Shown: piece after piece, positions 2,144-39,482 of the stretch
How positions within the stretch are numbered: the stretch's first letter is position 1
Layout: each line of letters opens with the position of its first letter
IMG/VR virus record: IMGVR_UViG_3300038360_000413
Length of the DNA: 64,000 bases
Direction: 5' to 3' (one strand)
Source: a virus
Taxonomy: Duplodnaviria; Heunggongvirae; Uroviricota; Caudoviricetes
The notes under the pieces: model-generated
Database searches by the model: none
What the model was told of the DNA's origin: nothing
What the model saw: only the letters and a program-made list of their open reading frames with translations
Program-made: the position numbers and the translations under genes

Positions 2144-2972
2144 TGGTAAATCTACTTGGGCAGAGGAGTTCTGTAAGAAAAACAAAAACTACATTCGCGT
2201 AAGCAGGGATGCACTTAGAAATATGCGAGGAGTATATTGGATACCTAAACAAGAAGATCTTATTACTGAATGGGAAAATACTTGTGTACTTAGCGCTTTC
2301 TCACAAGGATTCAGTGTTATACTTGATGCAACTAATTTAGATGTTAATGTAAACAAAGCAAAAATAGCTCTTTATAGAGAAGCTTTAATCGCTAAAGGTA
2401 TTACAGAAGAACTTAAAGTTAGTTATAAAAAATTCCTTGATATATCTCCAGAAGAATGTGTTAGACGCGATCTTCTTCGGAAAAACTCTGCAGGAGAAAA
2501 AGTAATATGGAGTTTCTATAACAGATACTTAGCACCTCTACCTGTAATATATGACGAGGACCCATCATTACCCCATTGTGTGATATTTGACGTAGACGGA
2601 ACATTAGCCCTTAGAGGCGACAGAGGTTCTTTTGATTTCTCGAAAGTCAAAGACGATCTTCCAAATAAACCAGTCATACAAATAGCACAAGCACTGACAG
2701 TGCCAATCATAATATTTACAGGCAGAGATGATATTTGTGAAATAGATACAAAAGATTGGTTACATGGACAAAAAGTGCCGTTCATAGACATGTTTATACG
2801 TGAAACGGTAAACAACGAAAAAGATTCCATAGTTAAGAAACGTATGTTTGAAGAAAACATTCGTGGTAAATACTATGTGGACTTTGTAGTAGATGACCGA
2901 CAACAAGTTGTAGACATGTGGCGCAAAGAACTAGGCCTTACATGTATACAAGTAAATTATGGAGACTTTTAA
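2109..2972 (+). CDS. pseT: polynucleotide 5'-kinase/3'-phosphatase (T4 PseT-like)
   Basis: P-loop GLPASGKSTWA at N-terminus; HAD phosphatase motif VIFDVDGTLA; C-terminal VVDDRQQVVDMW...GDF collinear with T4 Pnk. Confidence 0.9.
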   Translation: MKLTILQGLPASGKSTWAEEFCKKNKNYIRVSRDALRNMRGVYWIPKQEDLITEWENTCVLSAFSQGFSVILDATNLDVNVNKAKIALYREALIAKGITEELKVSYKKFLDISPEECVRRDLLRKNSAGEKVIWSFYNRYLAPLPVIYDEDPSLPHCVIFDVDGTLALRGDRGSFDFSKVKDDLPNKPVIQIAQALTVPIIIFTGRDDICEIDTKDWLHGQKVPFIDMFIRETVNNEKDSIVKKRMFEENIRGKYYVDFVVDDRQQVVDMWRKELGLTCIQVNYGDF

Positions 2973-3753
2973 AGAAAGGAATCAAATGATAAAAAAGAAT
3001 GAACGAAACAAAATAATAAGGTTCATCGAAGAGACTGTAAAAAATGCAGGTAAAACTGGAGTTGTGCTTGGACTGTCAGGCGGAATAGATTCTGCTTTGG
3101 TAGCTTGTTTAAGTGCAGAAGCCTTAGGAACGAATAACGTATTTGCAATATCTATGCCTATGGGTAGGTATCAAACACATGAACTTGCTATAAAACAAGC
3201 TAACCTTTTAGAAATGCATATTTGGAACGCAGAGCTTGATGAGGCATTAAATGTATTATGTGAAACTTTCAATAATTCACAGGACAATCTTCGTGTGGGA
3301 AATATAAAAGCGCGTTTAAGAATGATTACTTTGTATGATTATGCCGCACACGGCAATTGTTTAGTAATCGGTACAGAAAACTTGACAGAACACCTATTAG
3401 GTTATTGCACCAAATGGGGAGATCAGGCTTCTGATTTTGAACCAGTCATTAATTTCTTAAAAACAGAAATTTATCAATTGGCTCAACATTATCTTGATAG
3501 TGGTCAACTTTTAGATGAAATCTACCGCAGAGCTCCTTCAGCAGATCTTTGGGAAGGACAAACAGATGAAACCGAACTTGGACTTACTTATGAGGAAATT
3601 GATGCTTATCTACGACACAAACAGCTACTACTCGACGTGCCGGAATTGGCTGGGCAGGTGTACAACCATCCAGATGTAAAACGAAAAGTCGAAGCGCAAA
3701 TTGCGAGTACTCAGCATAAACACAATACTCCGTCTTTTATTAGGACGGACTAA
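2959..3753 (+). CDS. nadE: NH3-dependent NAD+ synthetase
   Basis: PP-loop SGGIDS motif (VVLGLSGGIDSALVA), about 264 aa typical NadE length. Confidence 0.8.
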   Translation: METFKERNQMIKKNERNKIIRFIEETVKNAGKTGVVLGLSGGIDSALVACLSAEALGTNNVFAISMPMGRYQTHELAIKQANLLEMHIWNAELDEALNVLCETFNNSQDNLRVGNIKARLRMITLYDYAAHGNCLVIGTENLTEHLLGYCTKWGDQASDFEPVINFLKTEIYQLAQHYLDSGQLLDEIYRRAPSADLWEGQTDETELGLTYEEIDAYLRHKQLLLDVPELAGQVYNHPDVKRKVEAQIASTQHKHNTPSFIRTD

Positions 3754-3770
3754 TAACCAAAAACAACAGA

Positions 3771-4508
3771 ATGAGACAAAAGAACGAACATTGGACATTG
3801 GCGGATATCGGGGAAGACAACGACTCAGACCTTGGGAACGATCTAACCCGGTGTCCGCATTGTACAACAAACACATTAGTAGATACAGTAGAAGCGGAGG
3901 AAACTGCAGGACACTTTCAGGTTGAATGTTCTAAATGTAAAATGAGAGGACCAATAGCAGCTAACAAAAGACTTGCATTATCCTTTTGGAAACATTTCAT
4001 TCCATCCTGGCAACCTCTGAAGTATTATGAAAATAATGCCAAAGAATATGGACTTTTTTTAGTTAAAACTCCGACAAGTATGCCAGAATGTCAGTATGTC
4101 CTTGATATTTGGACTTGGACGCAAGCTAGAGAATGGATTTCATTAACAAGTGTTATGTTGGGGTTTATTAATGAATCCCACTTTCCAATACTACCGGGAA
4201 TATATGTAGACCCCCAGCTCACGAGGTTATTACCTATTAAAAATATCAGTGATGAACTTTTGGGCAGATTGCCTTTTAATTTAAATGAATTAGGAGATCG
4301 TAGACGACAAGCGGTTATGTCATCAAATAGGCAAAGAGATGCGTCTGCGGCGGAACAGTATATATACAAAACCGAAAGATTAGGTATTATGTTCGCTACC
4401 GACTATTACCAACTACGTGAGATAATGAAAGCCGCACAAGAAACACGATATAGAGAGCAGAGAGGCTCACTAGGTCATAAATTTAAAGGAGGAACATGGC
4501 AACTATAA
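3771..4508 (+). CDS. protein with N-terminal Lar-like zinc ribbon (CPHC...CSKC)
   Basis: CxxC...CxxC ribbon resembling the Lar/restriction-alleviation family; remainder unknown. Confidence 0.4.
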   Translation: MRQKNEHWTLADIGEDNDSDLGNDLTRCPHCTTNTLVDTVEAEETAGHFQVECSKCKMRGPIAANKRLALSFWKHFIPSWQPLKYYENNAKEYGLFLVKTPTSMPECQYVLDIWTWTQAREWISLTSVMLGFINESHFPILPGIYVDPQLTRLLPIKNISDELLGRLPFNLNELGDRRRQAVMSSNRQRDASAAEQYIYKTERLGIMFATDYYQLREIMKAAQETRYREQRGSLGHKFKGGTWQL

Positions 4509-5080
4509 AACAGAAACCCATGGAACACATAATGATAGACTTGGAGACACTAGGAATTTTACCTACCGCTCCAATCTTACAAATAGCAGCATGCTACTTT
4601 GATCCTGAAACAGGAAAAATAGGAAAATGCTTCGATCATGTACTTGATTGGCAAACAAATGGCTATGGAACAATAGAACGTGAAACAATTGCCTGGTGGC
4701 TTATTCAAAATAAGAGTGCTGGTGCCCCCCTAGTAAATAGAATTACAACACCTATTAAATGGATAGGTGCAGAATTAAATGAATTTGTAAAAATAGAAGG
4801 TTCGGCAAAATACATATGGTGTACAGCACCTTTGACCGATTTAGGTTGTATTAAAAACCTATACAATGCATACGACTGGAAACTACCTTGGAACCATCGA
4901 ATGTATAGAGACGCTAGAACTATGATTGATCTAGCACGACGCCTTGATTGTCCTAAGCCAAAAGTAAATGGAATCAAGCATACAGGAATGTATGATTGCA
5001 AATGGGCCGTTGCGGGAGTATCAGCTGCTTGGCAAAGAATATTTCCAGAAGGCACAGAGTACTTGGGGGAAACAACATAA
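4496..5080 (+). CDS. DEDDh 3'-5' exonuclease (DexA/DnaQ-like)
   Basis: N-terminal MIDLETLG Exo I motif; length about 190 aa. Confidence 0.6.
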   Translation: MATIKQKPMEHIMIDLETLGILPTAPILQIAACYFDPETGKIGKCFDHVLDWQTNGYGTIERETIAWWLIQNKSAGAPLVNRITTPIKWIGAELNEFVKIEGSAKYIWCTAPLTDLGCIKNLYNAYDWKLPWNHRMYRDARTMIDLARRLDCPKPKVNGIKHTGMYDCKWAVAGVSAAWQRIFPEGTEYLGETT

Positions 5081-7719: not shown

Positions 7720-8679
7720 ATGTATAGCAATCAACCAGAAACACCGTTACAGTTTTTAATACAGTATAAGAAGACAATTCTAATTGTTATATTCGCATTA
7801 TTTGCACTAACGGTAGTGTTAGATGGTACGTATACTGTCGATACGCAAGAACAAGCCGTAGTTACCAGATTTGGTAAGTATCTCACTACTACCGACCCAG
7901 GGCTGCATTTCAAAATACCGTTTGTAGATGATACATATCTGATAAAGGTAGAAAAGCAGTACACACAAGAGTTTGGATTTCGTAAAAACAATCTCCGACG
8001 CAGTGAAGGTCCTAAAAACAATATTCCAAAAGAATCATGGATGCTTACAGGTGATTTAAGTATAGCTGAAGTAAGATGGGTTATTCAATACCGAATCACT
8101 GATCCAGCTGCCTATTTGTTTAATTTTAGGCGACCAGAAGAGTTTATGCGGGATCTTTCAGAAATGGATATGAGAACTTTGGTGGGAGATAGATCCTTCC
8201 ACGAGGCAACTCAGAGAGATCGAGCTGCAATGAGTGTTGAAGCTACTAACAACATGTATAAGTACATGACTAAGTACAATATGGGATTGGAAGTAAACAA
8301 TGTACAAATACATGAATCCTTACCTCCTCAACCTGTTATGGCCTCCTACAATGATGTAAATGTTGCCAAACAAGAGCAAGAGACACTTATCAACGAAGCC
8401 AGACAGCAGTATAATAAAATTATCCTAGAAGTAAAGGGACAAGCAAAGGCTAAGATAAATGATGCAAAAGGTTATGCTGCTCAAAGGGTAAACAATGCAA
8501 AGGGTGACGTAGCTGCATTTATGAAACTAGAAGCGGAGTATTTAAAAGCTCCAGAAATAACAAAGCAACGACTATACTTAGAGGCCATGGATAATATACT
8601 CGCTGGCGCTGTAATAAAGGTTGTTGATGAAGATCTTCAAAGTATTTTACCACACCTAAGTTTAGATGGAGGAAGATAA
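7720..8679 (+). CDS. hflK: SPFH/band-7 protein, HflK-like
   Basis: N-terminal TM, then TQEQAVVTRFGKY...GLHFKIPF band-7 core and C-terminal coiled coil. Confidence 0.7.
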   Translation: MYSNQPETPLQFLIQYKKTILIVIFALFALTVVLDGTYTVDTQEQAVVTRFGKYLTTTDPGLHFKIPFVDDTYLIKVEKQYTQEFGFRKNNLRRSEGPKNNIPKESWMLTGDLSIAEVRWVIQYRITDPAAYLFNFRRPEEFMRDLSEMDMRTLVGDRSFHEATQRDRAAMSVEATNNMYKYMTKYNMGLEVNNVQIHESLPPQPVMASYNDVNVAKQEQETLINEARQQYNKIILEVKGQAKAKINDAKGYAAQRVNNAKGDVAAFMKLEAEYLKAPEITKQRLYLEAMDNILAGAVIKVVDEDLQSILPHLSLDGGR

Positions 8680-9616
8680 AATGTTAAAGAAAATCATTAT
8701 TACAATTATCGGATTTCTTGCCCTTACTGTCGCGTATACCGGAGCATTCACAGTGCTGGAAACGGAACAAGGTGTTATATTACAGTTTGGTAAGGTTATC
8801 AGACAAGTAGATACTGCAGGATTTCATTGGAAATTGCCTTTCATACAAAGCTTTGAAGTAATGGAAAAAAGAAAGCTTGAGTGGGACGGACCACCAACAC
8901 AAATCCCAACTGCAGACAATAAAGTGATATTAGTAGATACCTTTGCAAGATATAAGATCACAAATCCAAAAAGATACTACAAAGCACTTAGAACCGAGCA
9001 ACGAACATTGGCAAAACTAAGTGAAGTTATCAAAGGAGCGAATATTAATGTGGTATCTTCCAGATCATTGGGAGAAGTGGTGAGAAACTCCGACAGACAG
9101 ATGCTGTTGAATTCAGAGGAAACCGAAGACGCAACTATGATGGATTCCAAAGGAACGGTTCAAGCTAAAGGAGCACGTGGTGTAATTCGTGACGAGATAT
9201 TTGAAAAAGTCAACACGATGTTAACAACTCTTGATCTTGGTATAGAACTTGTCAATCTGGAAATTAAAAGAACCTCGTATGTAGCGTCACTGCAGCCTAG
9301 TGTTTTCAAAAGGATGATTTCTGAACAGAATCGAATTGCTGAGAAATATCGTGCTGAAGGCCAGGGACAAAATACCGCTATTCGAAGTCTTATTGACAGA
9401 GATGAGAAAGAAATATTGTCTGAAGCATACAAAAACGCAAAAGACATCACAGGAGCGGCAAACGCAAGTGCAACAAAAATCTATGCCGAATCCTACGAAC
9501 AAAATCCAGATTTTTATGCTTTCTTAAAGTCATTAGAGCTTTATGAAAACACGCTTTCTGGACAGGAATTTATTTTATCAACGAAACATTCGTTTCTGCG
9601 ATATTTAGATAACTAA
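8666..9616 (+). CDS. hflC: SPFH/band-7 protein, HflC-like
   Basis: TM then ETEQGVILQFGKV...GFHWKLPFIQ core; paired with the upstream HflK-like gene. Confidence 0.7.
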   Translation: MEEDKMLKKIIITIIGFLALTVAYTGAFTVLETEQGVILQFGKVIRQVDTAGFHWKLPFIQSFEVMEKRKLEWDGPPTQIPTADNKVILVDTFARYKITNPKRYYKALRTEQRTLAKLSEVIKGANINVVSSRSLGEVVRNSDRQMLLNSEETEDATMMDSKGTVQAKGARGVIRDEIFEKVNTMLTTLDLGIELVNLEIKRTSYVASLQPSVFKRMISEQNRIAEKYRAEGQGQNTAIRSLIDRDEKEILSEAYKNAKDITGAANASATKIYAESYEQNPDFYAFLKSLELYENTLSGQEFILSTKHSFLRYLDN

Positions 9617-10735: not shown

Positions 10736-11248
10736 ATGCGATTATTAATAATAGCTATATTATTTGCTAACCTAACAGCTGGAACATATGAGTCTTTAAT
10801 TAAAGAATATCGAAGTTTTACAGACGAACAAAAAGAATCATTGCGAGCTTCGTATGAATTTGGATATCCCGCTGATTTGGGGTATACCTTGGCAGCAATC
10901 GAATGGCAAGAATCTGTAGCAGGTAAGTATAAAATCAACTTACAGGATCCCTCAGCTGGAGCGCATGGTATAAGCATTATGACTTATATGAGCAGACACA
11001 AGGATGAAATAACTAATACTCCTTTCAATAGAAACCGGGTGGCTCAGATGCTGATAGATAGCCACACCTTAAGCTGTAGAGAAGCGTTAGACGAATTGTT
11101 AGATTGGCAACGAGTGCATAACAATAATTGGTCAAAGATCGTTAGATCATACAATGCGGGATACAGTTGGAACGGCCCACAAGCACAGAAATACTTAACA
11201 GCTATTAGAGCTAAAATCAAGGTACTAAAAATTTATGTTCAACTTTAA
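10736..11248 (+). CDS. putative lytic transglycosylase (SLT-like), secreted
   Basis: Signal-like N-terminus; AIEWQES motif resembling the SLT catalytic E-S motif. Confidence 0.45.
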   Translation: MRLLIIAILFANLTAGTYESLIKEYRSFTDEQKESLRASYEFGYPADLGYTLAAIEWQESVAGKYKINLQDPSAGAHGISIMTYMSRHKDEITNTPFNRNRVAQMLIDSHTLSCREALDELLDWQRVHNNNWSKIVRSYNAGYSWNGPQAQKYLTAIRAKIKVLKIYVQL

Positions 11249-11793: not shown

Positions 11794-12624
11794 ATGAACA
11801 AACAGATAACAAATAAAAACATCCACTATCTTATGATAGATCCACAACAAGATTTTATGGATTTACCAGACTCAGCCTTGCCTGTGCCTGGAGCCACAAA
11901 AGACATGGATACGGTGGCCTCTATAGTACAAAAATGGGGACACGAGTTTGAGGATATTCACGTAACAATGGATACACACCAAAGATTGGCTATTTTTCAT
12001 CCAATGTTTATAAGAGATAAAAAAGGTAACATGCCTCCGGTATTTACTGCAATTTCACATGACGAGGTTATGAATGGAACTTGGAAAGCGTTTCATCCAG
12101 TACATCAAGATTGGTTAGAAGAGTATACACAAAAACTGGAAGAGCAAGGAAAATTCAGTTTATTTATATGGCCTTACCATTGTCTATTCGGATCATGGGG
12201 TCACAATGTGTATAAACCACTTTGGGATACTCTTCAAGAGTGGGAAGTCAAAAACAATGCACGTGTCAATTACGTACAGAAAGGTCACAATCCTTTCACA
12301 GAGCATTATTCCGCTGTAAAAGCTGAAGTTATTCGAGATGATGACGAAACGACTAATCTTAATAACAAATTCCTGGACATGCTCTCTAATCCTGAGGTAG
12401 ATATAATTCTTTCATCAGGTGAGGCGTTAAGTCATTGCTGGGCGTTTACTCTTGGAGATGTAGCCGACTACTTCTCTAAAGAGGACATCAAGAAACTGTA
12501 CTTGGTTGAGGGAACTTCCTCTCCAGTAGGCGGCTTTGAAGATGCAGGTGTCGAAGCTATCAAAAACATGAAAGCTAAGGGTATGCAAGTCATTCCCGCT
12601 GCAAACATTCCCGATTTATTTTAG
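11794..12624 (+). CDS. isochorismatase-fold hydrolase (possible nicotinamidase)
   Basis: HYLMIDPQQDF start resembling LIDxQNDF; possible catalytic Cys in SHCW. Confidence 0.4.
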   Translation: MNKQITNKNIHYLMIDPQQDFMDLPDSALPVPGATKDMDTVASIVQKWGHEFEDIHVTMDTHQRLAIFHPMFIRDKKGNMPPVFTAISHDEVMNGTWKAFHPVHQDWLEEYTQKLEEQGKFSLFIWPYHCLFGSWGHNVYKPLWDTLQEWEVKNNARVNYVQKGHNPFTEHYSAVKAEVIRDDDETTNLNNKFLDMLSNPEVDIILSSGEALSHCWAFTLGDVADYFSKEDIKKLYLVEGTSSPVGGFEDAGVEAIKNMKAKGMQVIPAANIPDLF

Positions 12625-12636: not shown

Positions 12637-13401
12637 ATGCCACGTTACACACCACACAACAACAAGAGCTTTAAAATACCAGGACCTGGAAACCTTAAGT
12701 TTTCACACGTGGAATTGGAAAAGCTGACAGGAACGGATCAGTATACTATTGTGGAAATAGTAAAAGACATTTCCGGATCTGTATATGGATATGCTACTGA
12801 GCTTCAACGAATACAACAGGAAGTTATAAAAGCTCTGAAAAAGTCTCCAAGAGTCGATAATCTATTAATTCGAAATACATCTTTCAACAGCAATGGTATT
12901 GTCGAAGACCATGGATATGACTTATTGGCAGATATTGATGAAAGCCAGTATCCAGTTCCACGCTGCGGCGGAGGAACTCCTCTTTATGATGCTACATTTC
13001 AATCTGTTAAATCAATGCATGCTTTCGGTTCTAAATTATGGAAAAAAGAATTTACCGTCAACGGGCTTATTTTTGTAATAACAGATGGATCTGAAAACTA
13101 TTCCCACATCATTCGAAATGCCTCAGAAGTAAAGGACGCAGTAAATGCGTTAATGGCAGATGAGGAAGCTTTGGAAGAAATTAATGTAGTTCTAATTGGA
13201 GTTAACATTAATGCCTATCGCAAAGCACTAGAAGACTTTCAAAAAGAAAGTGGAATCGTTCAATTTATCGACATTGAAACTGCCGACGAATCGAGCATTG
13301 CCAAAATAATTGGGTTTATTTCCAGAAGTGTTAGTTCCTCTAGTCAGGCACTACTCACAGGTGGAAAATCTCAACAAGTAAGTATCTCCTTAGAGATATA
13401 A
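12637..13401 (+). CDS. vWA-domain protein (TerY-like)
   Basis: MIDAS motif DISGSV and downstream ITDGSEN. Confidence 0.55.
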   Translation: MPRYTPHNNKSFKIPGPGNLKFSHVELEKLTGTDQYTIVEIVKDISGSVYGYATELQRIQQEVIKALKKSPRVDNLLIRNTSFNSNGIVEDHGYDLLADIDESQYPVPRCGGGTPLYDATFQSVKSMHAFGSKLWKKEFTVNGLIFVITDGSENYSHIIRNASEVKDAVNALMADEEALEEINVVLIGVNINAYRKALEDFQKESGIVQFIDIETADESSIAKIIGFISRSVSSSSQALLTGGKSQQVSISLEI

Positions 13402-13534: not shown

Positions 13535-14425
13535 GTGCAGGTATCGAATCCTGTCCATTCTAATACCTTTTTTCCAAAACACATTATGAAGCAAACAAAT
13601 ATAGATAAATTTAGTACGAAAGGAAGCACCCATAAGATCAATCAAGATTACGCATACGTAGAATCTTTAGAAGATGCCAAACTACTTGTTGTCTCAGATG
13701 GATGCTCCAGTGGAAGACTAGTTAGTATCGGATCTAGAATGATGTGTATGCTAGCAACTACGTACTTAAAAACCGCACAATATATAGACGAATTTATTAG
13801 ATTTCCTCGAACATTTGAAATGGCACTAACGGACGGATTGACCGAATTGTTAGATAACGAGGCGCTTGGACTACAAAAGGAAGATCTATTAGCTACAATT
13901 CTAGCCATATATTATGATAATAAAACATCCAGCTACGCATTAAAATATATAGGTGATGGATACATTCTGATAGAATATACATCAGGAGCCGTTATACTGG
14001 AAGAGTTGACATATGATGAAAATAAACCTATGTATCCCATATACTTAACTTCGAAATACGAACTCTCCTCTCCTTGTACTTTAAATCAAAAGTGGTACAT
14101 GAAAGAAAACGGCATATGGATAACATTGGGAACAGGAACAGGGTACAAACGCGCAATTGATACAATTTTCAGTACTTCCGAATCTGTAAAAAGAATGCAC
14201 CTTATTACTGATGGAATGTCGAGTTTTGTAAACAAAGCTACTTTAGAAAAAATTGATGTTACAAAGATAGCTGACGAAATACTCGCATTAAAATCAGATG
14301 ACGGACCATTCATGCAAAGACGTATGAAACGAATGCTTACTCTTTTTGAGAAAAAGAACATCTTTCCTGAAGATGATTTTACAATTGTAAGCCTTAATAT
14401 AAAGGAGATCAAAAGCGATGCATAA
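13535..14425 (+). CDS. PP2C-like protein phosphatase
   Basis: LVVSDGCSSG and LITDGMSSF motifs resembling PP2C metal-binding Asp motifs. Confidence 0.45.
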   Translation: MQVSNPVHSNTFFPKHIMKQTNIDKFSTKGSTHKINQDYAYVESLEDAKLLVVSDGCSSGRLVSIGSRMMCMLATTYLKTAQYIDEFIRFPRTFEMALTDGLTELLDNEALGLQKEDLLATILAIYYDNKTSSYALKYIGDGYILIEYTSGAVILEELTYDENKPMYPIYLTSKYELSSPCTLNQKWYMKENGIWITLGTGTGYKRAIDTIFSTSESVKRMHLITDGMSSFVNKATLEKIDVTKIADEILALKSDDGPFMQRRMKRMLTLFEKKNIFPEDDFTIVSLNIKEIKSDA

Positions 14426-14750
14426 TTCAAAAGAATTTAAACAAATTATTAAAGAAGTAGCAGAACAAAATAAATTAATCAATGCTATAGAGTCTATAAC
14501 ATGGAGTATAAAAACTATCGACAGACGTATGGACTCAGATGAATGTGCTATTTGTGGATTAGAAGCTTTAACAAGAGATAAAGATGGACCCGAGTTGAGC
14601 TCAATTAGTCTCGATTTAATAGATGTAGACACAAGAATTGAATTAGTCGCTAAACAGAAAAGACTATTAATAGAAGAGCGTAGTAAGGCAGAAAATGATT
14701 TACTAATCTTAAGAGAAAGATTTAAAAAAGATGCCAACAGTAATAAATAA
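14418..14750 (+). CDS. hypothetical protein
   Basis: 110-aa ORF. Confidence 0.35.
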   Translation: MHNSKEFKQIIKEVAEQNKLINAIESITWSIKTIDRRMDSDECAICGLEALTRDKDGPELSSISLDLIDVDTRIELVAKQKRLLIEERSKAENDLLILRERFKKDANSNK

Positions 14751-16467
14751 ACGGACTGGAAAATCGACTCAACTAAATGAAAGCAGTGATTTATTAGGTG
14801 AAGGCGGCGAAGGCAGAGTATTTGGTAAAGGCAACGAAGTATTCAAAATTTATATTAATCCCTCCGATGTAATTTCATTAGAAAAGATCAGAGAGTTACA
14901 GAAAATAAAATACAAAAATGTATTTATTCCAAAAGATATGTTAGTAGATCGACATGGTAAGCCTATAGGGTTCACAACAAATAGGGTGAAGAATTTCACG
15001 TATTTGACTCGATTATTTATTACAAGTTTTTGGGATAAGAATAATATCACAGTTGACAACATTGTAGCTTTAACAAAAGAAATGCAACACACGATCAAGC
15101 ATATACATGCACAACAAGTATTAATGGTTGACGGCAACGAGATGAATTATCTTGTAGATAGTAAAACTTATCAGATACCATACTTTATTGATGTAAACGC
15201 TTGGCAGACTCCAAGTTATCCTGCAACAGTAATTATGCCCAACATAAGAGATCATCATTCTTCTAAGTTTTCTGAATTTACAGATTGGTTCTCTTTTGGA
15301 ATAGTATCCTGTCAACTTTTTACAGGATTACACCCATACAAGGGCAGACATCCTCAGTATGCTGGAAGAAAGCAACTAGAAGCTCGTATGAAAGCGAACG
15401 TATCCATTTTCAACAAAGACACTAAAATACCAGGAGCGGTAAGAGATTTAGCTATTATTCCTCCCAACCTCAAAGAATGGTATATTAGAATGTTTGAAAA
15501 GGGAGAAAGATTAGAACCTCCAATGATCGGCAAACACACATTTACGTTTGAAGACAAACCGGTGGTTATTACTAACGAAAACTTCTATGTTCAAATGCTA
15601 GTATCCCTACCACATACTATTACACATCACTACGGAACAAGTGAAAATGATTATCTACAAACAAAAGAAAAAGTATATCAATATGATTTTATCACAAAAG
15701 CTTTAAAAGAATATGATTTAGTAAATAAGAACTCTAGAATATTAATTGACCCGATCCAAGATCAAAAAGCTTATGAAGTGTTTATTGAAAACACACATTT
15801 GCATATAAGAACCTTAGGTCAGTCAACAATTTCTGATACTAAATATAAAGCTGACGAAATTATGATTATAGATAATCGATTATACATAAAAACAGATGAT
15901 AAATTCCAACTAATGCGACTTTTCAAAGGTAGAACAGGACCAATGGTTGCGTCGGCTACAACTTTAAACGTAGCGGCCCAAGCCACACAACTGTTTGATG
16001 GAATGTTGTACTCACTTATAGGACAAAAACATTATCTGTATTTTCCCCAAAAAAATAACATAATTAAAACATTCATATCGGAACATTTGACGGATAGACG
16101 AGTATTAGATGCTAAGTACGAAAATGGTATTTGTATGCTCCGAACAATGAATAAGAAGACCGGTATTGAAGAATATGTATTATATATGAATGTAAATGAT
16201 GCCACGGACGTACAAATTAAACCTACGACGGTATCAATACTAAACTTTGTGTCTCTGCAAAAAAAGAGCTCACCTTTTGTATATCTCCATGAAGACGGCA
16301 AACTAACCCTTCTTCCAAAAGATGGCAGTACAGCAGGAAAAGTTGTAGAGCATAGAAACTTAACGACGAATTTGAAGTTGACGAGATCGGGTGATAGAGT
16401 AGGGTTGCTAACAAGGCACAAGTTCTATCGGGTCTCAACAAAAAAGTCAACAAGAAAAAATAACTAG
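14731..16467 (+). CDS. protein kinase-like protein
   Basis: Gly-rich loop LGEGGEGRVFGKG followed by VFKIY lysine; 578 aa; ends in TAG. Confidence 0.45.
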   Translation: MPTVINKRTGKSTQLNESSDLLGEGGEGRVFGKGNEVFKIYINPSDVISLEKIRELQKIKYKNVFIPKDMLVDRHGKPIGFTTNRVKNFTYLTRLFITSFWDKNNITVDNIVALTKEMQHTIKHIHAQQVLMVDGNEMNYLVDSKTYQIPYFIDVNAWQTPSYPATVIMPNIRDHHSSKFSEFTDWFSFGIVSCQLFTGLHPYKGRHPQYAGRKQLEARMKANVSIFNKDTKIPGAVRDLAIIPPNLKEWYIRMFEKGERLEPPMIGKHTFTFEDKPVVITNENFYVQMLVSLPHTITHHYGTSENDYLQTKEKVYQYDFITKALKEYDLVNKNSRILIDPIQDQKAYEVFIENTHLHIRTLGQSTISDTKYKADEIMIIDNRLYIKTDDKFQLMRLFKGRTGPMVASATTLNVAAQATQLFDGMLYSLIGQKHYLYFPQKNNIIKTFISEHLTDRRVLDAKYENGICMLRTMNKKTGIEEYVLYMNVNDATDVQIKPTTVSILNFVSLQKKSSPFVYLHEDGKLTLLPKDGSTAGKVVEHRNLTTNLKLTRSGDRVGLLTRHKFYRVSTKKSTRKNN

Positions 16468-21766: not shown

Positions 21767-22222
21767 ATGAAAACATTAAACAAAATAATCTTCAACGCAA
21801 AAAAGCCCTCGGGTTATGATGAATACTTTTCTAATTTCGCAGATTCTCCTATTACAATTGATGATATTAAATACCCAACAGTAGAACATGCATTTCAGGC
21901 ACACAAAACCATCAGCCCAACATTGCGTGTTGAAATGGCACAAATGCCAACACCAGGAAAAGCTAAACGTGCGGGTCGCAGAGTAAGCCTTCGCCCAGAT
22001 TGGGAAGAAGTAAAATATGACGTAATGGTCGTTTGCCTAAGAGAAAAGTTCAAGATAGAACTTTACAAAAAAATATTACTCTGTACACAAGATGTTGAAA
22101 TCATAGAAGACGCTGCCCAGTGGAATGACACTGAGTGGGGAATTGGAAAAGACGGAAAAGGCAAAAACCTTTTAGGAAAAGCATTAATGCAAGTAAGAAA
22201 GGAACTAAATGAAAACAAGTAA
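21767..22222 (+). CDS. NADAR-domain protein (YbiA/DUF1768 family)
   Basis: YFSNF...YPTVEHAFQAHK motif typical of NADAR. Confidence 0.55.
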   Translation: MKTLNKIIFNAKKPSGYDEYFSNFADSPITIDDIKYPTVEHAFQAHKTISPTLRVEMAQMPTPGKAKRAGRRVSLRPDWEEVKYDVMVVCLREKFKIELYKKILLCTQDVEIIEDAAQWNDTEWGIGKDGKGKNLLGKALMQVRKELNENK

Positions 22223-23426: not shown

Positions 23427-24590
23427 ATGTTTAAAACAATACCTAGCATCTTATGGAATGATTTTTATCAGTTCACAATGCAGAATGCTGTATTTCAACT
23501 ATTTCCTAACGTAATAAGCAGAGATCGACTCATCACTCGTGGTCATAAAATTAAATATGATGAGTTAATGGTAGGCGAATTAAAAAGGCACATTAGAAAC
23601 ATGTCAGAATTACGCTTACGTGCGCATGAATGTGTGTTTATGCATGCGCAAGGTATTTTTCCACATACTTACTTAGAATACTTAAATGGATATCAATACG
23701 ATCCAACTGAATTGGTAATTCAAAATATAGACGGCTACTTAGATATCTATTCAGAAGGATATACTTATAGCACTATGCTTTGGGAGACACCTATTTTGGC
23801 ACTAATCACTTGGTTAGGCTTAAAATATGATGAAACACAGCAAATGCCTTCCCAAGAAATAATTCGAAAAGAATCGCAGGAAAAAGCGAGTCGAATTAAA
23901 ATGGAAGGGTTGAAAGTTGCTGATTTTGGAGCACGCAGAGCGTTATCTCCAGAAATACATGCCAACGTGGTTGAAACTATGAAAAAATCTTTAGTTGGTA
24001 CCAGCAATGCTTACTTAGCCATGAAAAATGGAATCAAACCTATTGGCACGCAAGCACATAAATGGTATATGCTTAACGCAGCAATATACGGCTACAATAT
24101 GGCAAATCATTTCGGACTTGAAAATTGGGTAAAAGTATATGATGGCAATCTAGGAATAGCTTTACCTGACACATTTACCACACCGGTTTTTCTAGAACAA
24201 ATGACTACCAAACAAACAAAGTTATTTGATGGAATGCGCCAAGATAGTGCCAGTCCGACAAAAATTGGAGAGTCATATATTCGACACTATAAAGATCACC
24301 AGGTCGACCCTCTAACTAAAACTGCTATATTTTCTAATGCTCTTAATTTAGTAAAAGCCGTAGGACTAAGAGATTGGTTTGATGGTAAAATACAAACAGC
24401 ATTTGGAATGGGTGGGTTTCTTACAAACCATCTTGCAGGTATCAAAGTACCAAGCACAGTCTGGAAACTTTCAGAAGTAATGGTGCACGACAAATGGATA
24501 CCTGTGGTCAAACTATCAGATGATCCAGGAAAATATTCCGGAACAGTAGAAGAAATGCAGAGATGCAGAACAACATTGCGGTTAGATTAA
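23427..24590 (+). CDS. pncB: nicotinate phosphoribosyltransferase-like (NAPRTase family)
   Basis: N-terminus LWNDFYQFTMQNAVF matches the NAPRTase N-terminal signature (D-x-Y-K/Q-x-T-M); about 387 aa. Confidence 0.65.
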   Translation: MFKTIPSILWNDFYQFTMQNAVFQLFPNVISRDRLITRGHKIKYDELMVGELKRHIRNMSELRLRAHECVFMHAQGIFPHTYLEYLNGYQYDPTELVIQNIDGYLDIYSEGYTYSTMLWETPILALITWLGLKYDETQQMPSQEIIRKESQEKASRIKMEGLKVADFGARRALSPEIHANVVETMKKSLVGTSNAYLAMKNGIKPIGTQAHKWYMLNAAIYGYNMANHFGLENWVKVYDGNLGIALPDTFTTPVFLEQMTTKQTKLFDGMRQDSASPTKIGESYIRHYKDHQVDPLTKTAIFSNALNLVKAVGLRDWFDGKIQTAFGMGGFLTNHLAGIKVPSTVWKLSEVMVHDKWIPVVKLSDDPGKYSGTVEEMQRCRTTLRLD

Positions 24591-30338: not shown

Positions 30339-30424
30339 GTGTAGGTGGTAGATTTGGGAATACACTCGGCTGTGACCCGAGTTGGAGACAGCTCCTCATG
30401 CGGGTTCGAACCCCGTCCTACACC
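30339..30424 (+). tRNA. type-II tRNA (long variable arm) with anticodon GTG
   Basis: Perfect acceptor GTGTAGG/CCTACAC, 3-bp D-stem GTA/TAC, perfect anticodon stem CTCGG/CCGAG, loop CTGTGAC, variable hairpin GGAG-ACAG-CTCC, T-arm GCGGG-TTCGAAC-CCCGT. Confidence 0.55.
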
Positions 30425-30461
30425 CAAATAAGAAAACATTCCAACAAAATAAGGAAAGGAA

Positions 30462-31466: not shown

Positions 31467-31550
31467 GGGGCGATGCTAGAGCGGTCGAATAGGGTGGTTT
31501 GCAAAACCATCGAGTATATCTCCACATCAGTTCGAATCTGATTCGTCCCT
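31467..31550 (+). tRNA. tRNA with Cys anticodon (GCA) but a 15-nt variable region
   Basis: Acceptor GGGGCGA/TCGTCCC, anticodon stem GTGGT/ACCAT, loop TTGCAAA, T-arm ATCAG-TTCGAAT-CTGAT. Confidence 0.45.
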
Positions 31551-31569
31551 CAAATAACCAAGAAAGATT

Positions 31570-32785: not shown

Positions 32786-32859
32786 GCGCGAGTAGTTCTA
32801 GCGGCTAGAACAGGAGATTCTAAATCTCTGTGTCGCGGGTTCAAGTCCCGCCTCGCGCA
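32786..32859 (+). tRNA. suppressor tRNA, anticodon CTA (reads UAG amber)
   Basis: Canonical 75-nt cloverleaf: acceptor GCGCGAG/CTCGCGC, D-stem GTTC/GAAC, anticodon stem GGAGA/TCTCT, loop TTCTAAA, T-arm GCGGG-TTCAAGT-CCCGC. Confidence 0.7.
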
Positions 32860-32870
32860 CATAAAATTAA

Positions 32871-36486: not shown

Positions 36487-36520
36487 CTAGACTCATCCAC
36501 CATGTGTGGAAAGAGATGAG

Positions 36521-36545
36521 CCTCCCTTTAACCGGGGAGGCTGTA
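36521..36545 (+). terminator. hairpin terminator (CCTCCC-TTTAACCG-GGGAGG)
   Basis: Perfect 6-bp GC stem after the 706-aa ORF. Confidence 0.45.
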
Positions 36546-36547
36546 AT

Positions 36548-36618
36548 ACGGAGGTAGCTCAACAGAAGAGCGATGGGTCGCTCCCTGCGTGCTGGTTCAA
36601 ATCCAGCCCTCCGTGCCA
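36548..36618 (+). ncRNA. tRNA-like gene with truncated anticodon arm, CCA encoded
   Basis: Acceptor ACGGAGG/CCTCCGT, D-stem GCTC/GAGC, T-arm GCTGG-TTCAAAT-CCAGC, G-CCA; only 18 nt where anticodon arm plus variable should be. Confidence 0.35.
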
Positions 36619-36758
36619 AATTCGCTGGCTATTTTATTGCTTCCTTCTAAACGCCCAGTGGGCACTTGAATAAGGATCAAACAAAAAACAGTAATAAAGA
36701 TTTCCAGCAAACAATTCGTTTGGCTATATGATAGTTTCCTTCCATAATTTGCCTTAAA

Positions 36759-36830
36759 AGCAAGCGGTTGCGGGTTCGAGTCCCGTCACCATCTTCGGGT
36801 GGTGTAGCTCAATTGGTAGAGCTCTTAATC
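36759..36830 (+). ncRNA. permuted tRNA-like module U1
   Basis: T-arm GCGGG-TTCGAGT-CCCGT, CACCATC-TTCG-GGTGGTG closed acceptor, D-arm GCTC-AATTGGTA-GAGC. Confidence 0.45.
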
Positions 36831-37138
36831 CAACTGTCGTGATTTCCAAACACCCTTTTACTAGATCGTTTAATAAGTACGCTTCGTACTTAGAGATACT
36901 TGCAAAAGATCTTCAACGTAAAGAACTTCTCTTCGATGTCCTGACGGGACATCAGAGAAATTCACAAAGACCTCGTACAAACCCCGGCAACCAGGACTTT
37001 TCCTTCCAGATTCATGAACTCTCTACGAGTGTCCATCAAATCGTTACAGGAAACTACCTGGTGCCAGCTTTGTACATAGCCTTTTAGTAGTAAACAAATT
37101 TCGTTTGGCTATTTATAAACTTCCTTCTATAAACGCAA

Positions 37139-37209
37139 TCCGGGGGTCACAGGTTCGAATCCTGTCAGGCTGCTTCGGCGGTCTGTAGCTCAGTTGGCAG
37201 AGCACCGGA
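37139..37209 (+). ncRNA. permuted tRNA-like module U2 (best preserved)
   Basis: TCCGG (anticodon 3' strand), GGGTC variable, ACAGG-TTCGAAT-CCTGT T-arm, CAGGCTGC-TTCG-GCGGTCTG closed acceptor, D-arm GCTC-AGTTGGCA-GAGC, CCGGA (anticodon 5' strand). Unit closed by GTTTGG (37103) pairing with CCAAAC (37238). Confidence 0.55.
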
Positions 37210-37289
37210 CTTTAAAGTAACCCAGTTTATAAGATTTCCAAACACCCTTTTTATATTTGTTGGCCATATAATATGCTTCCTTCTATTAT

Positions 37290-37362
37290 AATCAATGATG
37301 ATGTAGGTTCGATTCCTACCTTCCCCACACCGAGGGGAAGTGGCGCAATTGGTGACGCACAT
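37290..37362 (+). ncRNA. permuted tRNA-like module U3
   Basis: GTAGG-TTCGATT-CCTAC, CTTCCCC-ACACCGA-GGGGAAG closed acceptor, D-arm GCG-CAATTGGTGA-CGC. Confidence 0.45.
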
Positions 37363-37430
37363 GACATGTAGCAATTATGATTTCCAACTATTTTTTTTGT
37401 TTGGCTATGAAAAAGCTTCCTTCTATTATT

Positions 37431-37480
37431 ACAGGTTCAAATCCTGTATTGCTCATTGAGCGATGATTGGTTAAACTAGC
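37431..37480 (+). ncRNA. permuted tRNA-like module U4 (truncated 5' half)
   Basis: ACAGG-TTCAAAT-CCTGT, ATTGCTC-ATT-GAGCGAT. Confidence 0.35.
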
Positions 37481-37820
37481 TTTTTCGATTTCCAAACATT
37501 CTTTTACTAGACCGTTTAATAGGTACGCTACGTACTTAAAGGTAAGCAAAATTACCTTAAACAAAGAACTCTCCCAATATCCACGAGCGGGACCTAAGAG
37601 GTCCAAGATGGATATTGACAGAATTCACAAGAAATACAGAAACCTACTGGCCGGTCAATCCAGGCCTAGGCGACGAGTCAGCCCTGAGCGAACAGTGCCG
37701 ACGTCTTGCCCGGGCCACGGACCACCGGCAACTATGTTTCCGAATCTCTTTTAGTAGTAACACGACAAATTTTAACTTGTTTGGCTATAAAGAAACTTCC
37801 TTCTAAAATGGTTAATAAAT

Positions 37821-37880
37821 CGGTAGCATTGCTATCGGTTTTGTAGGTTCAAACCCTACTCCGCGCTTCGGCGCAGTAAA
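37821..37880 (+). ncRNA. permuted tRNA-like module U5 (anticodon-like hairpin, T-arm, closed acceptor)
   Basis: CGGTAGC-ATT-GCTATCGG hairpin, GTAGG-TTCAAAC-CCTAC, CCGCGC-TTCG-GCGCAG. Confidence 0.35.
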
Positions 37881-38014
37881 ATCAGTTTCTTTGATTTCCA
37901 AACACCCCTTTCGAAAGGCTATTTAATGACTTCCTTCTACTTCTGTTGCCGCCTAACGGCGGTATACTTTCTATGTATAATGAAACCAGTTATTAAGATT
38001 TCCTTTCACCTTTT

Positions 38015-38095
38015 GCTCCCATAGTCACAACGATCTTCTAAGTCGTTATAGTGTAATTGGATCTGTAAATGTAGGTTCAAGTCCTACTGGGAGTG
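38015..38095 (+). ncRNA. atypical tRNA-like gene: anticodon arm (loop CTTCTAA, TCT) 8 nt after the acceptor; D-loop-like TAGTGTAATTGGA after it
   Basis: Acceptor GCTCCCA/TGGGAGT and T-arm GTAGG-TTCAAGT-CCTAC; same non-canonical arm order as the gene at 33523. Confidence 0.35.
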
Positions 38096-38231
38096 CAACG
38101 TCTGGCTATTTTATTGCTTCCTTCTATTTTAGCTCTTAAATGAGCACTTGAATGCTAACCAAAAAAATAGTAATAAAGATTTCTAGACGACTTTTTAAAT
38201 AAAAAAAACAAACAACTACACGGAGGAAACA

Positions 38232-38446: not shown

Positions 38447-38842
38447 ATGAACTTATCTATAAAATTAGACACATTTAAAGTAGTTAACGGATATCACGCA
38501 GTTCTTAGCTGGTGTTGGGCTTTTTTTCTTATAGGTCTCATTACAACATCTATAGAAATGGTAATAAGCAATCTCATATTTGCCGCGATAGGTCTTGTCA
38601 TGACATATCAATATCACAAAGTTGCCATTGAACACACAATACTTCTAAGCGTAGTCTCCATGGTCCTAAAAATAGCGGCCGCAGTAGGATTAATATTATT
38701 GGCAAAACATACAGCAGCTGTAAGTGTAGTTGGTATGGCTTTTCTAGTACCTACCTTTGCATTTTTCTATCACGTAATAGAAGCAGGGTATGTACAACAC
38801 TTAGTTCAGCAAAGCGTGCAGAAGGTATTAACAGAAAAATAA
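38447..38842 (+). CDS. membrane protein
   Basis: Multiple hydrophobic helices. Confidence 0.45.
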   Translation: MNLSIKLDTFKVVNGYHAVLSWCWAFFLIGLITTSIEMVISNLIFAAIGLVMTYQYHKVAIEHTILLSVVSMVLKIAAAVGLILLAKHTAAVSVVGMAFLVPTFAFFYHVIEAGYVQHLVQQSVQKVLTEK

Positions 38843-38853
38843 CAATAAATTAT

Positions 38854-38928
38854 ACGAGTGTCGATTTAACTGGCTAAGTCTGCGGATTCCAAACCCGTTA
38901 ATTCAAGGTTCGAATCCTTGCACTCGTG
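38854..38928 (+). tRNA. tRNA-Trp (anticodon CCA)
   Basis: Acceptor ACGAGTG/CACTCGT, D-stem GATT/AGTC, loop TTCCAAA, T-arm CAAGG-TTCGAAT-CCTTG. Confidence 0.55.
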
Positions 38929-38945
38929 CTAACAAAGGAAGAATT

Positions 38946-39482
38946 ATGAAAACAATTGGAATATACGGAGGGTCCTTTGATCCTCCGCATCTAGGCCATC
39001 GAGCCTTTGTAACCTACTTAGACAAACACAATAAAGAACTCAACTCCGGAATCAACCATGACTTATTATTAATTTGTCCATGTATCAATCCATTAAAAGA
39101 CATTACAATGAATGAGAGTTCATACTTTGATAAAGCTATGATGTGTACTGAAGCCTTTCCAGGACATTTTGTTCTACGTCATTACTACGAATATATGGTT
39201 GATCTTATAGATCACTTACGTGCAACATTTTTAAAAACACAAATCACCATTTATATAGGAAACGATGATTCAGCTAAAAGAATAAAGCTTTGGAATGACA
39301 TTGAGTATATTAAATCGCGCACAACTATAACTGTAATTGACTTAGACAAAGTAGTATACGATTCCAAAACAAGCAGCTCTATAATTAGAAAACAAATTTC
39401 AAATAAAGAATACATAGCAGCTGGCCGTGACTTACATAGCGATGTATTGAGCCGCATACTGCAAAATAAACTATATCAATAA
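38946..39482 (+). CDS. nadD: nicotinate/nicotinamide mononucleotide adenylyltransferase
   Basis: IGIYGGSFDPPHLGH = (H/T)xGH nucleotidyltransferase motif of NadD/NMNAT. Confidence 0.7.
   Translation: MKTIGIYGGSFDPPHLGHRAFVTYLDKHNKELNSGINHDLLLICPCINPLKDITMNESSYFDKAMMCTEAFPGHFVLRHYYEYMVDLIDHLRATFLKTQITIYIGNDDSAKRIKLWNDIEYIKSRTTITVIDLDKVVYDSKTSSSIIRKQISNKEYIAAGRDLHSDVLSRILQNKLYQ

Follow-up and report, generated by a model that had tools for sequence, protein, structure and literature searches.

A 64 kb stretch of the IMG/VR virus record IMGVR_UViG_3300038360_000413 (Caudoviricetes), referred to in its whole length as the window, carries genes for four proteins of the deamidating route from nicotinamide to NAD+: a single-domain NAD+ synthetase (NadE), a divergent nicotinamidase-like protein (PncA-like), a nicotinate phosphoribosyltransferase (PncB), and a divergent adenylyltransferase of the NadD type (Table 1). 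The PncA-like gene is followed by genes for a vWA-like protein, a PP2C-type phosphatase, and a Ser/Thr-kinase-like protein, and a NADAR-domain protein is encoded upstream of PncB. The original prediction, made from the sequence alone, had described a dispersed but near-complete NAD+ salvage set of five open reading frames (ORFs), and the starts that it gave at 2959, 11794, 21767, 23427, and 38946 and the last end at 39482 are exact. The path from nicotinamide via nicotinate, nicotinate mononucleotide (NaMN), and nicotinate adenine dinucleotide (NaAD) to NAD+ is covered as proposed; the set is in fact complete rather than near-complete, all four enzymes being present. Judged by sequence, predicted fold, and gene context, all four fall into the expected families and the clustering of their genes is conserved; catalytic residues have been checked for three of them. 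Loci and contigs fetched for comparison are designated by L and a number.

Table 1. Features of the window, with the evidence on which each assignment is based.
Feature	Coordinates	Strand	Basis
NadE, single-domain NH3-dependent NAD+ synthetase	2959..3753	+	264 aa; PF02540 and TIGR00552
Divergent nicotinamidase (predicted; PncA-like, ~265-aa family)	11794..12624	+	276 aa; residues, fold, context
vWA-like protein, triad member 1	12637..13401	+	VWA 16 bits, sub-threshold; DISGS motif
PP2C-type phosphatase, triad member 2	13535..14425	+	PF13672 (PP2C_2) 45 bits versus cut-off 24
Ser/Thr-kinase-like protein, triad member 3	14731..16467	+	Pkinase 21.7 bits, under cut-off
NADAR-domain protein	21767..22222	+	151 aa; PF08719 98 bits versus 35.1; TIGR02464 97.1 versus 73.7
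PncB, nicotinate phosphoribosyltransferase	23427..24590	+	387 aa; PF17767 and PF04095; TIGR01514
Divergent NadD-type adenylyltransferase (predicted)	38946..39482	+	PF01467 (CTP_transf_like) 29.5 bits versus cut-off 21
Long tRNA genes (examples, among others)	21662-21746, 24712-24804, 30339-30425, 31467-31551		Length unusual for type

NadE and PncB

Two of the predicted enzymes, NadE and the NAPRTase-family protein, pass curated cut-offs. NadE reaches 219.9 bits against TIGR00552 (cut-off 63.65) and 225.3 bits against PF02540 (cut-off 21; residues 17–258 of 264), its closest NCBIfam matches being models of ordinary NAD+ synthase. A glutaminase domain is missing, the alignment with the 546-position model of the glutamine-dependent enzyme being limited to positions 272–503, that is, to the synthetase half. 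The P-loop LSGGIDS, an SGGxDS motif of the ATP-pyrophosphatase type, is present in the translation and is the only catalytic element read for this enzyme. NadE shares 37% identity with its orthologue in L015, a contig of a related phage. Its start overlaps the end of a PNKP gene by 14 nucleotides (nt). This PNKP, complete with kinase and HAD phosphatase, and an Rnl1-type RNA ligase are encoded directly upstream of NadE at 1016–2972 (+) and form a T4-like tRNA-repair pair.

PncB matches both NAPRTase domains (PF17767, 84 bits; PF04095, 146 bits) and exceeds the cut-off of TIGR01514 (291.8 versus 269.55), while remaining slightly under that of the subfamily model PRK05321 (353 versus 379). In an alignment of phage and bacterial PncB proteins, G207, T208, and H211 of the GTQAH motif are invariant, the histidine of this GTxAH motif being the site of ATP-dependent autophosphorylation. 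The protein is 39% identical to PncB of the huge phages LR756501/503 and of L015 and is matched weakly by the Nampt family of PHROGs. An exact-protein look-up returned no identical record, and an IMG/VR scan with PncB as a single-protein query gave no match; relatives were found with an alignment query. At least 294 IMG/VR stretches carry PncB relatives, and the neighborhood counts for viral loci given below come from 80 that were fetched, representing 43 lineages.

A divergent predicted nicotinamidase

The product of the ORF at 11794, the start of which is placed at 11833 by gene callers elsewhere, escapes the curated profiles: no Pfam match is obtained at E ≤ 0.01, and NF008623 yields 20.5 bits against a cut-off of 174. 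It belongs to a family of proteins of ~265 aa comprising 740 database clusters at E ≤ 0.001, of which only some members have a faint precomputed match to PF00857. Six residues do not vary among 27 aligned members of the family, namely D16, D60, H62, H129, K163, and C215, which correspond in a HMMER alignment to D8, D51, H53, H94, K122, and C167 of yeast Pnc1. D16, K163, and C215 make up the Asp-Lys-Cys catalytic triad, and D60, H62, and H129 the Asp/His/His metal site. This metal site (DxH and the histidine of WPxHC) separates nicotinamidases from other amidases of the isochorismatase fold. Matches of the protein in the PDB are to nicotinamidases only, and the family profile is likewise significant against nicotinamidases only. 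When an AlphaFold2 model (pLDDT 91.8) was searched with Foldseek, ranks 1–14 were all solved nicotinamidases, placed above other amidases of the fold (E 3e-13 to 1.5e-8), with target-normalized TM-scores of 0.52–0.82.

Gene context points in the same direction. A scan of one genome per species revealed at least 583 bacterial loci with a PncA-like gene, and context was counted in 80 that were fetched: NrtR is adjacent in 55 of these and SIR2 in 24, PncB lies within 8 kb in 15, and NadE is found in 11. NrtR is an ADP-ribose-responsive repressor and a regulator of NAD+. In Andreprevotia, Chitinimonas, and Sulfuricella-type loci, the PncA-like gene is located directly upstream of pncB-nadE. The cultured Andreprevotia chitinilytica is an example, with a divergently transcribed NrtR gene and, after it, genes for PncA-like, PncB, a glutamine-dependent NadE, and a NadM-Nudix protein; this is a full nicotinamide-to-NAD+ operon with the PncA-like family in the nicotinamidase slot. 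On viral contigs, PncA-like genes occur inside or beside PncB-NadE-NadD arrays, and the phage protein shares 40–49% identity with bacterial family members. Because residues, fold, bacterial context, and viral context outweigh the failed profile test, we conclude that the ORF at 11794 encodes a predicted nicotinamidase-type enzyme of a family missed by curated models. The candidate nicotinamidase of the original prediction is thus upheld by residues, fold, and gene context, though not by Pfam or NCBIfam thresholds. That prediction had named a failure of the NAPRTase-like and isochorismatase-like proteins to match their families as the result that would speak against it; the former does match, whereas the latter misses the Pfam and NCBIfam models and is rescued by the stronger tests. 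A probable function is thereby given to a family that is found widely among bacteria, with at least 583 genome loci, and lies under the thresholds of both databases.

A stand-alone HAD phosphatase of the PNKP type (11235–11792, +) ends 1 nt before the PncA-like gene. A parallel with the enzymes of the aRES/phage-phosphatase paper was rejected: those are Macro-type ADPR-1P phosphatases of NARP1 operons, unlike the HAD/PNKP-type phosphatases next to NadE and PncA-like.

A divergent adenylyltransferase of the NadD type

The 12 best NCBIfam matches of the protein encoded at 38946 are all NadD models, and all remain far under cut-off (43.8 versus 112.45 for TIGR00482; 45.4 versus 315 for the best model, NF005519). 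Every PDB match found by phmmer at E < 0.1 is a NadD. Relatives are few, namely an identical protein, a 43%-identical protein of a related phage, and NadD proteins of ~180 aa from Campylobacterota with 24–31% identity. Alignment of the adenylyltransferases reveals invariant H15 and H18 (HxGH), located in the sequence GGSFDPPHLGH, and conserved S143/S144 and R148 (SxxxxR). The AlphaFold model (pLDDT 76.5) reaches 80–93 in the core and has a poor C-terminus; in Foldseek, ranks 1–24 are taken by bacterial NadD without exception, above NMNAT and PPAT, with TM-scores that stay modest (0.52–0.59) owing to the poorly modeled C-terminus. The strongest argument for NadD identity is the gene context in L015, where the orthologue (43–44% identity) is the last gene of a packed NadE-Nudix-NadD array located 3.5 kb downstream of PncB. 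The ORF is filed here as a divergent NadD-type enzyme that would form NaAD from NaMN and ATP, with a predicted substrate preference. The NaMN/NMN adenylyltransferase initially proposed accordingly becomes a divergent NadD by motifs, PDB matches, fold, and L015 context, even though NCBIfam cut-offs are missed.

A protein too divergent for the NadD equivalog cut-offs could also belong to a pathway in which the final steps are reversed as in Francisella, with NadE making nicotinamide mononucleotide (NMN) from NaMN and the adenylyltransferase being of the NMN type. NaMN-preferring NadE variants were reportedly described by Sorci et al. in 2009, a gene for the NMN-type enzyme NadM follows NadE in the Andreprevotia operon, and a NadM-Nudix-like gene is present in 13 of the 80 viral loci. 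However, all sequence and fold matches of the adenylyltransferase are to NadD and none to NadM or NadR, and the NadE of the window is nearest to ordinary NAD+ synthases; the reversed order therefore appears improbable.

Clustering of the NAD+ genes in related phages

The NAD+ genes are grouped more than expected by chance, since a single 15 kb block of a related phage contains these genes and since such sets recur in other phages. Within 10 kb of viral PncB genes, NadE is found in 65 of the 80 loci, NadD in 44, and a PncA in 43; all four enzymes occur together in 27 loci, corresponding to 13 of the 43 lineages, with a median span of 4.7 kb. PncB, NadE, and the PncA-like gene also co-occur in the huge phages LR756511, LR756500, and LR745208. 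In L131–L133, which are longer IMG/VR contigs of the same phage as L015, genes for PncA-like, its three partners, NADAR, PncB, NadE, a Nudix hydrolase, and NadD are contained within 15.2 kb. The NadE-Nudix-NadD genes of L015 are tightly packed, with a 1-base overlap followed by direct abutment, the Nudix gene (L015 9408–10001) being wedged between the other two. In L134 (IMGVR_UViG_3300027972_000007), PncB, PncA-like, vWA-like, PP2C, kinase-like, NadE, and NadD genes abut over 6.9 kb. Nudix genes lie near NadE in further viral loci (L104, L113, L117, L124, L137, and others), an arrangement that echoes the bacterial NadM-Nudix fusion.

L015 and the window share many orthologues at 40–78% identity. 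In the window, the same genes extend over 36 kb and are mixed with tRNA genes, NadE having moved to a place beside the RNA-repair genes. Phages thus carry the module repeatedly, and its scattered layout is a derived state peculiar to this genome; insertion of tRNA genes and other sequences would have broken up a block that is contiguous in the relative. The description of the set as dispersed holds for the window only, the counterpart in the related phage being one 15 kb block. An Rfam search detected neither an NAD+ riboswitch nor another cis-regulatory RNA near the NAD genes.

Phage setting of the window

Nearly all genes of the window lie on the plus strand, and its G+C content is 34–39%. 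Its 26 tRNA genes lie in the interval from 17.1 to 41.3 kb, and a gene for tmRNA is present at 43370–43750. A Pfam scan of all substantial ORFs identified, besides the PP2C and kinase-like proteins, an Rnl1-type RNA ligase, PNKP, and metallophosphatases, two SPFH proteins, AAA and MoxR ATPases, HNH nucleases, a SpoU methylase, UDG, ThyA, ClpP, DnaJ, the beta and beta' subunits of a bacterial-type RNA polymerase, and a reverse transcriptase; virion genes were not found among the window ORFs in these scans. Megablast of 20 kb against INPHARED revealed no close sequenced phage at the DNA level, only a tRNA being matched. In phage records, the nearest homologues of PncB, NadE, and PncA-like come from the uncultured huge phages LR756500, LR756501/503, LR756511, and LR745208 (460–735 kb). 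The same phage has been recovered in several independent assemblies, and a contig of 210,263 bp encodes a protein identical to the NadD of the window. We conclude that the window is part of a huge phage.

The PncA-like and NadD-like proteins have their nearest relatives in bacteria, and the window is devoid of virion genes, as would be seen if bacterial DNA had been mis-assembled or mis-binned into a phage-like contig and the genes were not phage-encoded. This explanation is very hard to reconcile with the identical gene order in independent assemblies from several samples, with the placing of the NAD genes among the tRNAs of a phage-type array, on one strand and at a uniform G+C of 35–39%, and with the nature of the relatives, which are IMG/VR viral contigs of 142–206 kb and published huge phages; we consider it highly improbable.

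The predicted route and its proposed role

The huge phage probably encodes a deamidating route that is complete and leads in four steps from nicotinamide to NAD+, by which, we infer, it keeps or rebuilds the NAD+ pool of the infected cell. First, the divergent nicotinamidase (11794) would hydrolyze nicotinamide to nicotinate and NH3. In a second step, PncB (23427) would combine nicotinate with host phosphoribosyl pyrophosphate (PRPP), with ATP, to yield NaMN. The divergent NadD-type enzyme (38946) would then convert NaMN and ATP into NaAD, which the single-domain NadE (2959) would finally turn into NAD+ at the expense of ATP and NH3. The chemistry of this series follows from established knowledge of these families. 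NADase-type defenses (SIR2, TIR, DSR) and sirtuins release nicotinamide. The route would recycle the nicotinamide set free by such defenses, as the phage pathways NARP1–3 (see the last section) do by other chemistry, and by analogy a counter-defense role is plausible.

Several points weigh against this interpretation. All enzyme activities are predicted from sequence and models; the PncA-like protein fails its curated equivalog cut-off (20.5 versus 174), as does the NadD-like protein (43.8 versus 112.45), and the preferences for nicotinamide over another amide and for NaMN over NMN are predictions. The four genes of the window are 8–15 kb apart, co-expression is not evident, and no promoter motif shared by the regions upstream of the NAD genes was found. 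PncB, NadE, and NadD are only 37–44% identical to their L015 orthologues as compared to 57–78% for neighboring genes (75–78% for the flanking NADAR, SpoU methylase, and 26314–27078 ORF), which suggests faster evolution, relaxed constraint, or replacement by horizontal transfer. The window lacks a counterpart of the L015 Nudix gene. The route would also cost host PRPP and ~3 ATP per NAD+, and nothing in the window indicates NADase defenses in the host.

The route might be real and yet provide general metabolic support, that is, NAD+ for phage consumers, for a long infection, or for a host devoid of nicotinamide salvage. Housekeeping-type genes abound in the window (26 tRNAs, tmRNA, ThyA, ClpP, DnaJ, RNA polymerase), the bacterial counterpart is an ordinary NrtR-regulated salvage operon, and a supply role has been proposed by Li et al. 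2024, who refer to NAD-dependent ligases and other NAD+ consumers and to the complementarity of phage and host pathways (PMC11662467). On the other hand, Pfam scans of the window ORFs revealed no NAD+-consuming phage enzyme, every phage NAD+-synthesis pathway tested to date (NARP1–3) acts as counter-defense, and the substrate of the route is the exact product of NADase defenses. Metabolic support in place of counter-defense is in our view possible, if on the unlikely side; the two roles are not mutually exclusive, and as a reading of the gene set metabolic support is equally natural. If it were the only role, the genes would constitute an ordinary auxiliary metabolic gene set of an already catalogued kind.

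NAD+ depletion is among the commonest bacterial anti-phage strategies, and none of the three proven phage pathways uses PncA-PncB-NadD-NadE. A literature search found no experiment on a phage-encoded deamidating NAD+ route. For testing such a fourth route, the 6.9 kb operon of IMGVR_UViG_3300027972_000007 and the 15 kb block of IMGVR_UViG_3300025602_000002 are well-defined candidates.

The vWA-like/PP2C/kinase-like triad

The original prediction missed that the PncA-like gene is part of a conserved four-gene cassette (11794–16467) with the genes for the vWA-like protein, the PP2C, and the kinase-like protein. The translation of the first contains a DISGS motif of the DxSxS, MIDAS type, and a sequence search of the PDB yielded nothing significant; in both bacteria and phages, its homologues (E 1e-10 to 1e-47) are encoded after the PncA-like gene. 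The kinase-like protein matches bacterial Ser/Thr kinases of the PDB weakly (E 0.01) and has a C-terminal region of ~300 aa without a recognized fold, and its homologues in bacterial and phage cassettes are found at E 1e-20 to 1e-94. An ORF of 110 aa (14418–14750) separates PP2C and kinase-like genes in the window, whereas relatives have no such ORF at this position. In the bacterial PncA-like loci, homologues in the same order are present in 50 of 80 cases for PP2C, 30 of 80 for the vWA-like protein, and 25 of 80 for the kinase-like protein. A PP2C gene lies near the PncA-like gene in the phage loci L009, L097, L098, L131, and L134; all three partners are found in the huge phages L009/L010, LR745208, and L131–L134, and two of the three in LR756511 and LR756500. 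About one in three of the bacterial loci have the triad after the PncA-like gene, as do at least five lineages of huge phages. The triad is located inside the pathway operon of L134, and the same embedding is seen in the bacterial loci L063, L065, L074, and L085. The triad-bearing loci that were fetched are without exception MAGs.

Two adjacent SPFH/Band_7 genes (7720–9616, +) lie 2 kb upstream of the PncA-like cassette of the window. On the phage-like 231 kb contigs L009/L010, a Band_7 gene (1735–2721) is located directly upstream of the vWA-like/PP2C/kinase-like/PncA-like cassette.

No literature link between a vWA/PP2C/kinase triad and nicotinamidase or NrtR was found, and the coupling of NAD+ salvage operons to such a triad is apparently undescribed. 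Weakly, we infer a part of the triad in regulating the salvage step. Tentatively, and with more doubt than confidence, it may be envisaged as a phosphorylation switch for nicotinamide salvage that would sense NAD+ breakdown or infection, toggle the nicotinamidase or the route, and have been captured by huge phages together with the enzyme. If true, this would amount, along with the predicted four-step route, to a regulated counter-defense of a 'NARP4' type and a new layer of control of bacterial NAD+ homeostasis.

The combination resembles TerY-P, a signaling and defense triad of vWA, PP2C, and kinase (PMC11090510, summarizing Anantharaman et al. 2012; Gao et al. 2020), in that it would likewise consist of three parts, vWA, PP2C, and Ser/Thr kinase, encoded by adjacent genes and accompanying other systems as an accessory; for the window proteins, PP2C_2 exceeds its cut-off, whereas the VWA and Pkinase scores are sub-threshold. 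In contrast to TerY-P, the partner of the triad in the window is the nicotinamidase of an NAD+ salvage operon. PADLOC TerY-P models did not match the triad at E ≤ 0.001, on which ground filing it as TerY-P was rejected, and neither a zinc ribbon nor an OB fold was detected in the C-terminal region of the kinase-like protein.

This resemblance raises the question of whether the PncA-like protein and the triad form a separate, TerY-P-like signaling or conflict module acting on another amide, which would leave the phage with a three-step route from nicotinate. Such a module would account for the PncA-like protein lying under Pfam and NCBIfam thresholds, for its position in the window, 11 kb from PncB and flanked by the triad, and for the presence of PP2C in 50 of 80 bacterial loci when PncB is within 8 kb in only 15; vWA, PP2C, and kinase triads are, moreover, known as TerY-P signaling and defense modules (PMC11090510). 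It would not account for the six invariant catalytic and metal residues, with a metal site typical of nicotinamidases, or for best fold matches that are nicotinamidases. NrtR, the NAD+ regulator, adjoins the gene in 55 of 80 loci; in the absence of the triad, the PncA-like gene directly precedes pncB-nadE; and in L134, L063, L065, L074, and L085 the triad itself lies inside or beside the pncB/nadE operon. As no PADLOC TerY-P model matches either, a separate module is judged unlikely, and the assignment of the PncA-like protein to the first step of the NAD+ route is preferred.

The NADAR-domain protein

The original prediction had also counted the NADAR protein as part of the set. This protein contributes no step to the route: the phage NADARs studied by experiment act against DarT1 as DNA ADP-ribosylglycohydrolases (PMC11257639, PMC11543638). 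TIGR02464, the cut-off of which it exceeds, is the NCBIfam model of the YbiA-type N-glycosidase domain. NADAR enzymes undo the ADP-ribosylation of guanine, and characterized members are guanine-ADP-ribose glycohydrolases or YbiA-type N-glycosidases; T4 AdfN and NADARs of T5-related and Vequintavirinae phages neutralize DarT1 (PMC11543638, PMC11257639). The protein of the window is probably an ADP-ribosyl (N-glycosidic) hydrolase that would remove ADP-ribose from modified nucleic acid. Like the phage anti-DarT factors AdfN (T4), NADAR-Bas32, and NADAR-Bas60 (PMC11257639), it is a small stand-alone phage NADAR. Its nearest homologues among 304 phage records are T5-like NADARs with 41–43% identity, the group that includes NADAR-Bas32, which reverses DNA ADP-ribosylation by DarT1. 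It differs from these factors in being only 41–43% identical and in its synteny with PncB in two related phages. The orthologue in L015 is 78% identical and likewise located upstream of PncB, at a distance of ~0.7 kb and separated from it by a pilin-like gene; the linkage is therefore real in this lineage. It is not general, as NADAR and PncB lie within 10 kb of each other in only 5 of the 80 viral loci. The product of the intervening gene of the window (22209–22571, +) is small and has an N-terminal methylation motif like that of type IV pilins (PF07963, 21.7 bits), and such a gene also separates NADAR and PncB in L015 (4565–4900).

Further features of the window

The tRNA array includes a tRNA with the anticodon CUA (32786–32860, +), reported as tRNA-Pyl and in effect an amber suppressor; TAG serves as stop codon in 13 of 84 window ORFs. 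The vWA-like ORF continues the frame of the PncA-like ORF, and no stop intervenes. TAG read-through fusing the two was rejected as a designed feature because the next ORF is in the same frame for 3 of the 13 TAG-terminated ORFs, which is the chance rate, and because the frames of the two genes differ in L134. Several tRNA genes are unusually long, for example those for tRNA-Ile(UAU) with 93 nt, tRNA-Thr with 85 nt, tRNA-His with 87 nt, and tRNA-Cys with 85 nt, and may contain introns or extended variable arms.

Positions 36500–38200 (+) are poor in proteins and contain two more tRNA-like genes missed by ARAGORN (36548–36615 and 38015–38095) as well as several sub-threshold matches to YrlA, a Y-RNA-like family (43 bits versus a gathering score of 69, E 1e-7). 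The promoter-like motif TTGGCTAT-N7-CTTCCTTCTA is present there in seven copies versus 0.13 expected by chance, and the region resembles an array in which every small RNA gene has a promoter to itself. The motif was rejected as a sign of co-regulation, being confined to 36.6–38.1 kb and preceding no NAD gene.

A reverse transcriptase of 306 aa (59564–60484, +) matches PADLOC models of retron-type and defense-associated reverse transcriptases (E 1e-76 to 1e-50) and is preceded by genes for a MoxR-type AAA ATPase and a VWA protein (56710–57861 and 57858–59366); judged from sequence, the three may form a retron-like or defense-type reverse transcriptase module carried by a huge phage. The RNA polymerase genes (48865–55929, -) are peculiar in that the beta ORF ends ...GDKLCVSADTEFLTYDG at a TGA (junction 53527–53550). 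Seven codons past this stop and in the same frame, the next ORF starts with a LAGLIDADG/intein-like part, followed by the beta motif GNSGRYGNKYIV and then beta'. The arrangement looks like a beta-intein-beta' fusion broken by a single in-frame TGA, which could reflect read-through, an assembly error, or a truly split gene; a tRNA with a UCA anticodon was not found in the tRNA scan of the window.

Comparison with known systems

Jumbo phages with Preiss-Handler genes have been known since 2024, when Li et al. reported complete salvage or Preiss-Handler gene sets, including a pncB-nadD-nadE cluster, in 174 of 668 gut jumbo phages and proposed a counter-defense or supply role on bioinformatic grounds (PMC11662467). 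Since such pathways had already been reported there, the core finding presented here is of a known kind. Both those phages and the present one are very large and carry pncB, nadD, and nadE, enough to proceed from nicotinate to NAD+, and the present phage falls under the definition of a 'NAD-jumbo phage' (>200 kb, every enzyme of one NAD+ pathway), with the Preiss-Handler enzymes plus PncA and a contig of 210,263 bp. Despite this likeness, several differences exist. The NAD-jumbo phages come from animal gut and have clustered genes (e.g., Kuafu_71), whereas those of the window are scattered over 36 kb. Li et al. 2024 mention pncA only in passing, and NADAR is absent from their paper (PMC11662467); the nicotinamidase of the window, unlike the enzymes of the NAD-jumbo set, represents a divergent family missed by standard profiles and is accompanied by the vWA/PP2C/kinase triad.

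An earlier survey listed NadV, NadM, and NadR as the only phage NAD+ synthesis genes (Iyer et al. 2022). Experimental proof that rebuilding of NAD+ by phages defeats NADase defenses exists for NARP1 (Adps and Namat), NARP2 (Nampt and Nmnat, e.g., in Vibrio phage KVP40), and NARP3 (PnuC and NadR). The route of the window would likewise be a phage-encoded means of rebuilding NAD+, and it would start from nicotinamide as NARP1 and NARP2 do. While NARP1–3 are amidated routes of one or two enzymes, it is a four-enzyme deamidating route with a putative role in counter-defense, and Pfam scans of all window ORFs detected no Nampt, Adps, Namat, NadR, or PnuC and no PRPP-synthetase-like domain.

A parallel in gene content is offered by bacterial NrtR-regulated pncA-pncB-nadE(-nadM) operons, which contain the same enzyme families in the same order as the phage set. 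In contrast to these operons, the phage has no NrtR and combines a short NH3-type NadE with a NadD-type enzyme, where Andreprevotia has a glutamine-dependent NadE and NadM-Nudix. From the phage sets known so far, the present one differs in the divergent nicotinamidase family and in the coupling of this family to its triad, which is conserved in bacteria and huge phages.

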